Shown here: one piece after another, positions 202 to 2,341 of the stretch
Numbering within the stretch: position 1 is the first letter of the stretch
Layout: every line of letters begins with the position of its first letter
From: Escherichia coli
GTDB lineage: Bacteria > Pseudomonadota > Gammaproteobacteria > Enterobacterales > Enterobacteriaceae
Assembly (NCBI RefSeq): GCF_044324875.1
Contig: NZ_CP172185.1
Strand: one strand, 5' to 3'
DNA length: 64,000 nucleotides
The notes under the pieces: generated by a model
Seen by the model: only the letters and a program-made list of their open reading frames with translations
Told to the model about the DNA's origin: nothing
Database searches by the model: none
Program-made: the position numbers and the translations under genes

Positions 202-756
202 GTGTTAATGATCATAAAAAAAAGCGGTGGTCGCTGGCAGCTAAGCCTGCTGGTGAGCGTGGTAATCAGTGCCTTTTTTCTCAACACAGCTTACGCCTGG
301 CAACAAGAATATATCGTTGATACGCAACCCGGACATTCCACAGAGCGTTACACCTGGGATAGCGATCATCAACCTGATTACAACGATATTTTGTCGCAAC
401 GTATTCAAAGTAGCCAAAGGGCGCTGGGACTGGAAGTCAATCTGGCGGAAGAAACCCCTGTGGATGTGACCAGCAGTATGAGTATGGGCTGGAATTTTCC
501 TTTATATGAACAGGTTACAACCGGCCCGGTCGCGGCATTACATTACGATGGCACAACCACCTCGATGTATAACGAGTTTGGCGACAGTACTACCACGCTA
601 GCCGATCCGTTATGGCATGCCAGCGTGAGTACCTTAGGCTGGCGTGTTGACTCCCGGCTTGGCGATCTCCGACCCTGGGCGCAAATCAGCTATAACCAGC
701 AATTTGGCGAGAATATCTGGAAGGCGCAATCAGGCCTGAGCCGGATGACGGCGACA
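202..756 (+). pseudogene. yhjY: yhjY 5' fragment (autotransporter/lipase-like outer membrane protein), interrupted by IS insertion
   Basis: ORF 202..825 matches YhjY up to ...SGLSRMTAT, then diverges into IS end sequence at about 757. Confidence 0.75.
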
Positions 757-799
757 ATGAACTGCACCCCAAATGTTGGACATAATCTGACATCTGAAG

Positions 800-1330
800 G
801 TGCAGTTTATGAAACATTCATTTGAAGTAAAACTTGCCGCTGTAAATCACTACCTGGCTGGTCATGCAGGCATCATTTCTACGGCAAAACTCTTTCAACT
901 TTCTCACACCAGCCTCTCACACTGGATTAATCTTTTTCTTCTTCACGGTCCTCGGGCACTGGATTGCAGACACAAGCGTAGCTATTCTCCTGAAGATAAA
1001 CTTTGCGTGGTTCTTTATGCTCTCGGGCATTCTGAGTCTCTACCCCGGGTAGCTGCCCGGTTTAACATTCCCAGCCACAACACGGTTAAAAACTGGATAA
1101 AAGGCTACCGCAAATCTGGTAATGAGGCCTTTATCAGGCGCTGGAAGGAGAAAAGCATGACCCGTTCTGATGATACCCATGAAAACGAGGCAAACATGAC
1201 GCCGGAAGAGATGAAGAATGAGCTGCGTTATCTTCGCGCAGAAAATGCATATCTGAAAGCCATGCAGGAGCATCTCCTGGAAAAAAAGCGCCAGGAGCTG
1301 GAGAAAAAACGAAAGTCATCCGGAGCCTGA
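800..1330 (+). CDS. IS3-family transposase OrfA (helix-turn-helix / leucine-zipper part)
   Basis: 176 aa ORF with helix-turn-helix-like N-terminus and coiled-coil C-terminus, ending just past a slippery heptamer. Confidence 0.8.
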   Translation: MQFMKHSFEVKLAAVNHYLAGHAGIISTAKLFQLSHTSLSHWINLFLLHGPRALDCRHKRSYSPEDKLCVVLYALGHSESLPRVAARFNIPSHNTVKNWIKGYRKSGNEAFIRRWKEKSMTRSDDTHENEANMTPEEMKNELRYLRAENAYLKAMQEHLLEKKRQELEKKRKSSGA

Positions 1331-2157
1331 GGTGCGGACACTGCCAGTCTGACCTGTTAAAGGCTGCAGGGCTGGCCAGAAGCACGCTGTACTACCAGCT
1401 GTCACTGCAGAAGGCTAAGGACAAGTATGCTGATGTGAAACAGCTCATAGCCTCCATCTTCCATGAACACCGGGGATGTTATGGGTACCGGCGGATCCAT
1501 TGTGAGCTTCAGAAAAGAGGTCTTAAGTTCAGTGGCAAAACGGTGCGAAAACTGATGCAACAGCTCGGCCTGAAGTCTCCTGTGCGCCTGAAGAAATACC
1601 GGTCTTACCGGGGAAATATGGGACTCGCTGCAGAAAATATCCTTCAGCGGCAGTTCAAAGCGGAAGCTCCCTGTGAGAAATGGGTGACAGATATCACCGA
1701 ATTCAGGGCTGGCGGACAAAAACTGTACCTGTCCCCGATACTTGATTTGTTTAACGGGGAAATCGTGGCGTGGGAAACGGCCTGCAGGCCTACAGAGGAG
1801 CTGGTGAAGCGGATGTTAAATAAGGGGCTGGAAAGCCTTGCTGAAGGGGAGAAACCGCTGCTCCACAGTGATCAAGGATGGCATTACCGGATAAAAAGTT
1901 ATCAGTCCGCCCTGGCGGACAGAGGGTTAGTGCAGAGCATGTCGCGCAAGGGCAACTGCCTTGATAATGCGGTAATGGAGAACTTCTTTGGTCACCTGAA
2001 AGAAGAAATGTACTATCGCCGGGACTACAGAAATGTAGAAGAGCTGGAAAATGCCGTTAACGAATACATAACTTACTGGAATCAAAAAAGAATAAAACTC
2101 AGTCTTGGGGGACTCAGTCCGGTAGAATACCGGACTGAGCATCAAAAAGCCGGTTAA
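1282..2157 (+). CDS. IS3-family transposase OrfB (DDE catalytic part), read in the -1 frame from slippery site A AAA AAG at 1282..1288; presumably made as an OrfAB fusion
   Basis: The -1 frame is open from 1282 through 2157; heptamer A AAA AAG sits in the orfA frame (GAA AAA AAG); OrfB carries ...GLARSTLYY... and a DDE-type integrase core; the first ATG in this frame is at 1435. Confidence 0.75.
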   Translation, partial: KKAPGAGEKTKVIRSLRCGHCQSDLLKAAGLARSTLYYQLSLQKAKDKYADVKQLIASIFHEHRGCYGYRRIHCELQKRGLKFSGKTVRKLMQQLGLKSPVRLKKYRSYRGNMGLAAENILQRQFKAEAPCEKWVTDITEFRAGGQKLYLSPILDLFNGEIVAWETACRPTEELVKRMLNKGLESLAEGEKPLLHSDQGWHYRIKSYQSALADRGLVQSMSRKGNCLDNAVMENFFGHLKEEMYYRRDYRNVEELENAVNEYITYWNQKRIKLSLGGLSPVEYRTEHQKAG

Positions 2158-2191
2158 CTGAAACTGTCCAGGTTTTGGGGTTCAGTTCACA

Positions 2192-2341
2192 AACCAGAAC
2201 GGCAACTGGCTGGATGTCACCGTAGGCGCTGATATGTTGCTCAATCAAAATATTGCTGCCTATGCTGCGCTATCTCAGGCAGAAAATACCACTAACAATA
2301 GCGACTATCTGTATACGATGGGGGTTAGTGCCAGATTTTAA
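2192..2341 (+). pseudogene. yhjY: yhjY 3' fragment (C-terminal 49 codons)
   Basis: Translation NQNGNWLDVTVGADMLLNQNIAAYAALSQAENTTNNSDYLYTMGVSARF* continues YhjY immediately after the IS right end. Confidence 0.75.

Follow-up and report, generated by a model that had tools for sequence, protein, structure and literature searches.

The insertion sequence (IS) IS1397 has been reported to be specific for repetitive extragenic palindromic (REP) sequences, also termed palindromic units (PUs) (PMC1525189, PMC3184786), a specificity that is taken here from secondary statements in these two papers. IS621, a member of the IS110 family, likewise targets REP sequences in Escherichia coli (PMC1525189), and differs from IS1397 in employing a DEDD/serine transposase guided by a bridge RNA, with neither a frameshift nor IS3-type terminal inverted repeats. 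With IS150, IS3, IS2 and IS911, which also inactivate the genes they interrupt, IS1397 shares the orfA/orfB organisation, the A AAA AAG -1 frameshift, the DDE type of transposase, ends in TG...CA and a target duplication of 3-4 bp; in contrast to most such IS3-family elements, which show little target selectivity, it has a strong preference for PUs. Wilde and colleagues (2002, J Bacteriol 184:4739) reportedly described transposition of IS1397 in Yersinia pestis that does not depend on PUs, to go by the title of that work in the reference list of PMC2817692. Here, we describe a natural copy of IS1397 lying within yhjY, a poorly characterised, non-essential gene predicted from its sequence to encode an autotransporter-type outer-membrane beta-barrel, in a stretch of 64,000 nucleotides of E. 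coli DNA (assembly GCF_044324875.1, contig NZ_CP172185.1), hereafter the window. It is very probable that IS1397 transposed into yhjY at a decoy resembling one half of a PU, that the gene product was thereby cut, and that the event is recent and restricted to one lineage. At the canonical sites, which are PU loops in bacterial interspersed mosaic elements (BIMEs), the same element is found, with 0-18 mismatches over 1432 bp, and the duplication size of 3-4 bp and the spacing between the GCC[G/T]GATG arm and the IS end are likewise those seen in yhjY; unlike these sites, the target in yhjY belongs to a coding sequence and offers one PU-like arm with a 1-nt insertion and no PU-like hairpin. The Yersinia pestis case, as far as its title conveys, is similar in that IS1397 entered non-PU targets, and different in that it was experimental and in a host without PUs, whereas the yhjY insertion arose naturally, in a genome that abounds in genuine PUs. 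The element is a known one and the disruption an ordinary one, the half-PU decoy being the only mildly unusual point, and the event, which at strain level costs a gene that is not essential, is accordingly of small significance.

The identity of the element is firmly established. Over all 1432 bp it shows 100% identity with copies that carry the annotation IS1397, which identifies it as such and carries the resemblance far beyond chance; at least 18 complete E. coli records are listed with copies identical over this whole length, bearing the PGAP label 'IS3-like element IS1397 family transposase' with a programmed frameshift at IS positions 52-1400. The name that the first-pass annotation had left to be found is thus supplied by the NCBI PGAP annotation of identical copies. 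Of the 5,426 complete genomes, 3,485 have a match to IS1397, which is near-full-length in 1,707 of them, and the best match reaches at least 99% in 1,279 records; within the window the copy number is one. The terminal repeats (Table 1) are 84% complementary and end in TGAACTG...CAGTTCA, so that the earlier reading of an IS3-family element with TGAAC...GTTCA repeats is borne out both by the 25-nt repeats and by the match to the family model NF033516. All features expected of the family are present: imperfect TG...CA repeats, a length within the range of ~1.2-1.55 kb, a duplication of 3-4 bp, an orfA in frame 0 and an orfB in frame -1 joined by A AAA AAG, and a DDE domain together with the family model match. 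The ends were placed by comparison with other copies; in the window, the flanks read ...GGCGA-CAA / IS / CAA-ACCAG... At the barA-gudD and ugpB-livF sites (L015, L016), the duplicated bases begin with G (GTTA, GTAA), and the terminal A was therefore assigned to the element. It follows that the right-hand ACA (2189-2191) overlaps the IS end and that the true duplication is CAA; the flanking ACA triplets of the first-pass annotation are displaced by one base, and its element bounds of 757..2190 need correction by 1 bp at each end.

Table 1. Coordinates of the features of the yhjY::IS1397 locus in the window.
Feature	Position	Strand	Remarks
yhjY 5' fragment	208..757	+	codons 1-183 and first base of codon 184
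Truncated frame	208..825	+	YhjY residues 1-183 plus 22 IS-derived residues (MNCTPNVGHNLTSEGAVYETFI); TGA stop 823-825
Mimic of PU left arm, GCCGGATGaCGGCG	740..753	+	within yhjY coding sequence; GCCGGATG octamer ends 10 nt from IS end
Target-site duplication, left copy	755..757		CAA, 3 bp
Predicted RNA hairpin	757..810	+	left terminal inverted repeat pairs with orfA Shine-Dalgarno and ATG; -25.7 kcal/mol, z -4.17
IS1397, IS3 family, complete	758..2189	+	1432 bp; 100% identity to annotated IS1397 copies
Left terminal inverted repeat (IRL)	758..782	+	25 nt, TGAACTGCACCCCAAATGTTGGACA
orfA	809..1330	+	173 aa, helix-turn-helix (HTH) domains; ATG at 809 is the PGAP coding start
Slippery heptamer A AAA AAG	1282..1288	+	-1 programmed frameshifting; X XXY YYZ register of orfA frame
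orfB frame	1282..2157	+	-1 relative to orfA; DDE/rve catalytic domain; stop 2155-2157
Right terminal inverted repeat (IRR)	2165..2189	+	25 nt, TGTCCAGGTTTTGGGGTTCAGTTCA
Target-site duplication, right copy	2190..2192		CAA, 3 bp
yhjY 3' fragment	2192..2341	+	last 49 codons (NQNGNW...GVSARF) and stop 2339-2341; no start of its own

The interruption of yhjY, as first proposed, can be read directly at both ends: the frame runs to ...SGLSRMTAT, with ACA at 754-756 as its last full codon, and resumes as NQNGNWLDV... at 2192. Removal in silico of the IS and one CAA yields an uninterrupted yhjY frame of 707 bp encoding 232 aa, which is 99.9% identical to the annotated yhjY of strain KE55 (232 aa, ending ...GVSARF, with an ATG equivalent to 208). 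The start annotated in this close relative is thus the ATG at 208, and a GTG at 202 is also in frame. The neighbourhood also matches that of KE55, with tag upstream and divergent, its N-terminus being readable at positions 50-1 on the minus strand, and yhjX downstream. The rebuilt gene is covered over at least 80% of its length in 5,420 of the 5,426 complete genomes. The first-pass annotation had allowed that the downstream frame might be coincidental if intact orthologues lacked the C-terminal 49 residues; the orthologues keep them (232 aa, ...GVSARF). With residue numbers counted from the GTG at 202, rebuilt YhjY matches the Autotransporter beta-domain PF03797 (7.4e-12, residues 90-211) and TIGR01414 (21.9 bits for a cut-off of 16, residues 90-234 corresponding to positions 285-432 of the 432 of the model), the latter match reaching the final residue of both protein and model. 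The insertion cuts YhjY after residue 183 of 232, with the loss of the last 49 residues of the predicted beta-barrel, including the terminal ...ARF. In outer-membrane barrel assembly, a C-terminal truncation of this kind is expected to prevent folding. Since the last 49 barrel residues, GVSARF included, are lost, folding of YhjY would be expected to fail, and the yhjY::IS1397 allele should be null.

The left flank in yhjY is GCCGGATGaCGGCGaCAA. It corresponds to the left arm of a PU into which one additional base has come; an A-rich stretch follows, and the insertion register is the same as in genuine PUs (GCCGGATGaCGGCG-aCAA). BLAST matches of IS1397 extend 18-33 nt into this left flank. The site was compared with the flanks of 17 other natural IS1397 copies, which represent 15 distinct sites, or 16 with yhjY. 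Thirteen of the 15 other sites are PU loops with duplications of 3-4 bp, as exemplified by GCCGGATGCGGCGT-AAAC / IS / AAAC-GCCTTATCCGGCCTAC. At every sampled site, yhjY and the two other non-PU copies included, an octamer GCC[G/T]GAT[G/A] ends 7-10 nt from an IS end; in these two other non-PU copies, the distance is 8 or 10 nt. One of them (L026, GCA_964044245.1, IS at ~2450-3881) is situated inside an aegA-like gene that is split into products of 111 aa and 582 aa; the duplicated triplet is CGC, and the site has no full PU, only a single GCCGGATG octamer at a distance of 10 nt from the IS end. The other, found in strain GN25 (L018) and again in GCA_964044245.1 (L027), belongs to a type VI secretion cluster, where its neighbours are a DUF4123 gene and vasI; it has neither a target-site duplication nor a PU, only GCCTGATG at 8 nt from its right end, which suggests an adjacent deletion or rearrangement after insertion. 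At the PU of the cysE-trmL intergenic region, IS1397 is present in opposite orientations in L024 and L030, with the same three base pairs duplicated (AAT/ATT), and these are therefore independent hits on one site; the copy in L030 is 1431 bp long and its orfB is split.

That the insertion site is random, and the resemblance of the yhjY left flank to a PU arm coincidental, appears improbable. This explanation draws on the yhjY right flank, which is devoid of PU similarity, on the absence of a PU-like hairpin and on at least one natural copy (L018/L027) at a non-PU site with no duplication at all. However, only two sites within edit distance 1 of the 13-nt arm GCCGGATGCGGCG exist on both strands of the window (128 kb), namely a true PU at 40750 and the yhjY site itself, for an expectation of 0.5 sites per window as simulated from the base-to-base frequencies of the window. 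Furthermore, the match stands in the canonical register, for which the chance is ~9e-4 per random position (a strict octamer at 8-10 nt is found for 9.1e-4 of positions in the IS-free window), and the two other sampled non-PU copies carry the octamer as well. Because the PU-arm match is rare in the window and its octamer lies in register, we prefer a half-PU decoy to random insertion. Several points nevertheless weigh against this interpretation of the locus. The yhjY site is not a PU loop, and its right flank bears no relation to the right arm of a PU; the reported target specificity of IS1397 is therefore only half respected. A PU-like imperfect hairpin was considered and rejected, as the minimum-energy fold of the 41-nt region consists of two small unrelated hairpins. 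The octamer-distance rule was noticed post hoc in a small sample of 16 sites, and half-site targeting may already be described, or contradicted, in the primary IS1397 papers. As regards the product, we infer the loss of YhjY function from the truncation; the searchable literature holds no established function for YhjY, and a sequence search of the PDB gave no match, hence no solved relative by sequence.

At the mechanistic level, what is established for IS3-family elements implies that -1 slippage of the ribosome at A AAA AAG joins OrfA and OrfB into the DDE transposase, which copies IS1397 out as a circle and pastes this circle into the target. The element, whose usual target is the REP/PU loop, was probably captured in yhjY by one PU-like arm and an A-rich 'loop', and the complete IS1397 transposed into codon 184 of yhjY, within the tag / yhjY / yhjX context, with duplication of the three base pairs CAA. 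It can be hypothesised, tentatively and at somewhat less than even odds, that a single arm GCC(G/T)GATG located 7-10 bp from the joining site is enough for low-efficiency capture, that coding sequences may thereby serve as decoys, and that transposase de-repression possibly ensues. Were this the case, neither a whole PU nor a hairpin would be indispensable for IS1397, and coding sequences with such an arm, for example codons 178-182 of yhjY or aegA in another strain, would constitute latent decoys, borne by nearly all E. coli and inactivated from time to time. In addition, transposase synthesis could be de-repressed in a co-oriented intragenic copy, since translation would then cross the IRL hairpin. 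The locus provides a natural example, aegA being a second, of IS1397 in a coding sequence that copies one target arm, and narrows what the transposase likely recognises.

The insertion is real, recent and lineage-restricted. The yhjY::IS1397 allele was found in 0 of the 5,426 complete E. coli genomes (at least 80% coverage of 202-2341), and the uninterrupted 60-mer across the insertion site is present in 5,418 of them, at 99% identity or more in 5,204. The exact 205-aa truncated YhjY product is recorded in three draft contigs, two of which were read: GCA_958308375.1 differs from the window by 1 mismatch over 977 bp and GCA_002467655.1 by none over 884 bp, and both have the identical left junction and end inside the IS. 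The 30-nt left junction had no match in the metagenome contigs of the Joint Genome Institute (JGI). It could be argued that the assembler mis-joined an IS copy into yhjY, since IS elements are frequently misassembled and the allele is absent from the complete genomes; this is scarcely credible, as the full-length element is bordered by a clean 3-bp duplication, its removal restores the frame exactly, and the same left junction occurs in two independent draft assemblies. A genuine transposition event is thus retained, and its junction is a rare, clean lineage marker. The flank at 2193-27000 (24.8 kb, with yhjX, eptB, dpp and bcs) reaches a best full-length identity of 98.3% among the 5,426 complete RefSeq E. 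coli genomes, whereas yhjY is 99.9% identical to that of one strain, which would indicate either that the lineage of the window is absent from, or poorly represented among, the complete genomes or that the region is mosaic. In the ten places listed for the exact YhjX protein, the yhjY locus is uninterrupted by an IS. In one assembly (L037, European Nucleotide Archive ERZ28762363), yhjY is called as two pieces of 32 aa and 148 aa with no IS, which is probably a frameshift or an assembly error.

The transposase genes of this copy appear intact. As anticipated in the first-pass annotation, orfA and orfB are joined by an A AAA AAG heptamer in register, and the -1 frame is open to 2157. The OrfAB fusion comprises 449 aa and scores 385 bits against NCBIfam NF033516 (IS3 family transposase; cut-off 160), with the domains HTH_28 (x2), HTH_21, rve, rve_2 and rve_3, PF00665 rve being matched at 7e-21. 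Immediately downstream of the heptamer, folding predicts a stem-loop with moderate support (z -1.96). Copies without a single mismatch to that of the window occupy several other chromosomal sites, four of which are in one genome (L024-L027), and this argues for recent transposition of this IS1397 variant; in a variant with 17 mismatches, the OrfA protein is identical to that of the window. The earlier view of an intact IS agrees with these full-length, zero-mismatch copies, and the sequence supports a copy that is potentially active.

A hairpin formed by the IRL that masks the transposase start is a classic IS device against activation by read-through. The corresponding structure of IS1397 (Table 1) is equalled by 0 of 200 shuffled sequences, and only transcripts that come in from beyond the IS, here from yhjY, are able to adopt it. 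The truncated yhjY frame passes through this hairpin up to its stop. The insertion might consequently matter through altered expression, either by read-out from the IS into yhjX or by yhjY-driven read-through and translation across the IRL that raises transposase synthesis. Such an explanation is favoured by the common orientation of the IS, yhjY and yhjX, and by the truncated frame reading through the IRL to 825, over the hairpin that would otherwise sequester the orfA start. It is nonetheless quite unlikely to account for the locus: no outward sigma-70-like promoter was found inside the IS, the scan of 1-2700 giving 3 sites for 3.3 expected, and the yhjY-yhjX intergenic region (2342-2569) is untouched, so that yhjX keeps its own upstream region. 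Raised transposase expression from translation through the hairpin is speculation at this stage, based on a predicted fold, and the truncation of yhjY by a complete IS1397 is the interpretation that we retain.

The left end of IS1397 also occurs beyond the element. A scan of genome contigs with the 24-nt IRL returned 12 loci, only two of which (L004 and L005) are IS1397; the other ten (L003, L006-L014) resemble it over no more than 24-29 nt at the terminus, except in Serratia nevei, where 77 nt are similar at 85%. The exact first 24-25 nt of the left end were found in otherwise unrelated DNA of Yersinia aldovae and of metagenome-assembled genomes labelled Acholeplasmataceae, Lachnospiraceae and Bacteroidetes. 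It looks as if the terminal repeat is far more conserved than the elements themselves, or as if some contigs are contaminated.

Elsewhere in the window, a second REP-targeting IS is present, whose transposase gene (6161-7141, minus strand) encodes an RNA-guided enzyme of the IS110 family with 326 aa (NF033542, 256 bits). Its DNA matches loci annotated 'IS110-like element IS621 family transposase', and the element extends over roughly 6040-7335. This IS621 copy is located between tRNA-Pro(CGG) (5885-5961) and dppA, and abuts a REP palindrome at 7335-7368. Finally, positions 15233-17073 contain four tandem units of 483 bp, each with an rdlD antitoxin RNA (Rfam RF01813, 78-90 bits), and thus hold an ldr/rdl type I toxin-antitoxin array that has expanded, with the dpp region on one side and the cellulose (bcs) genes on the other.

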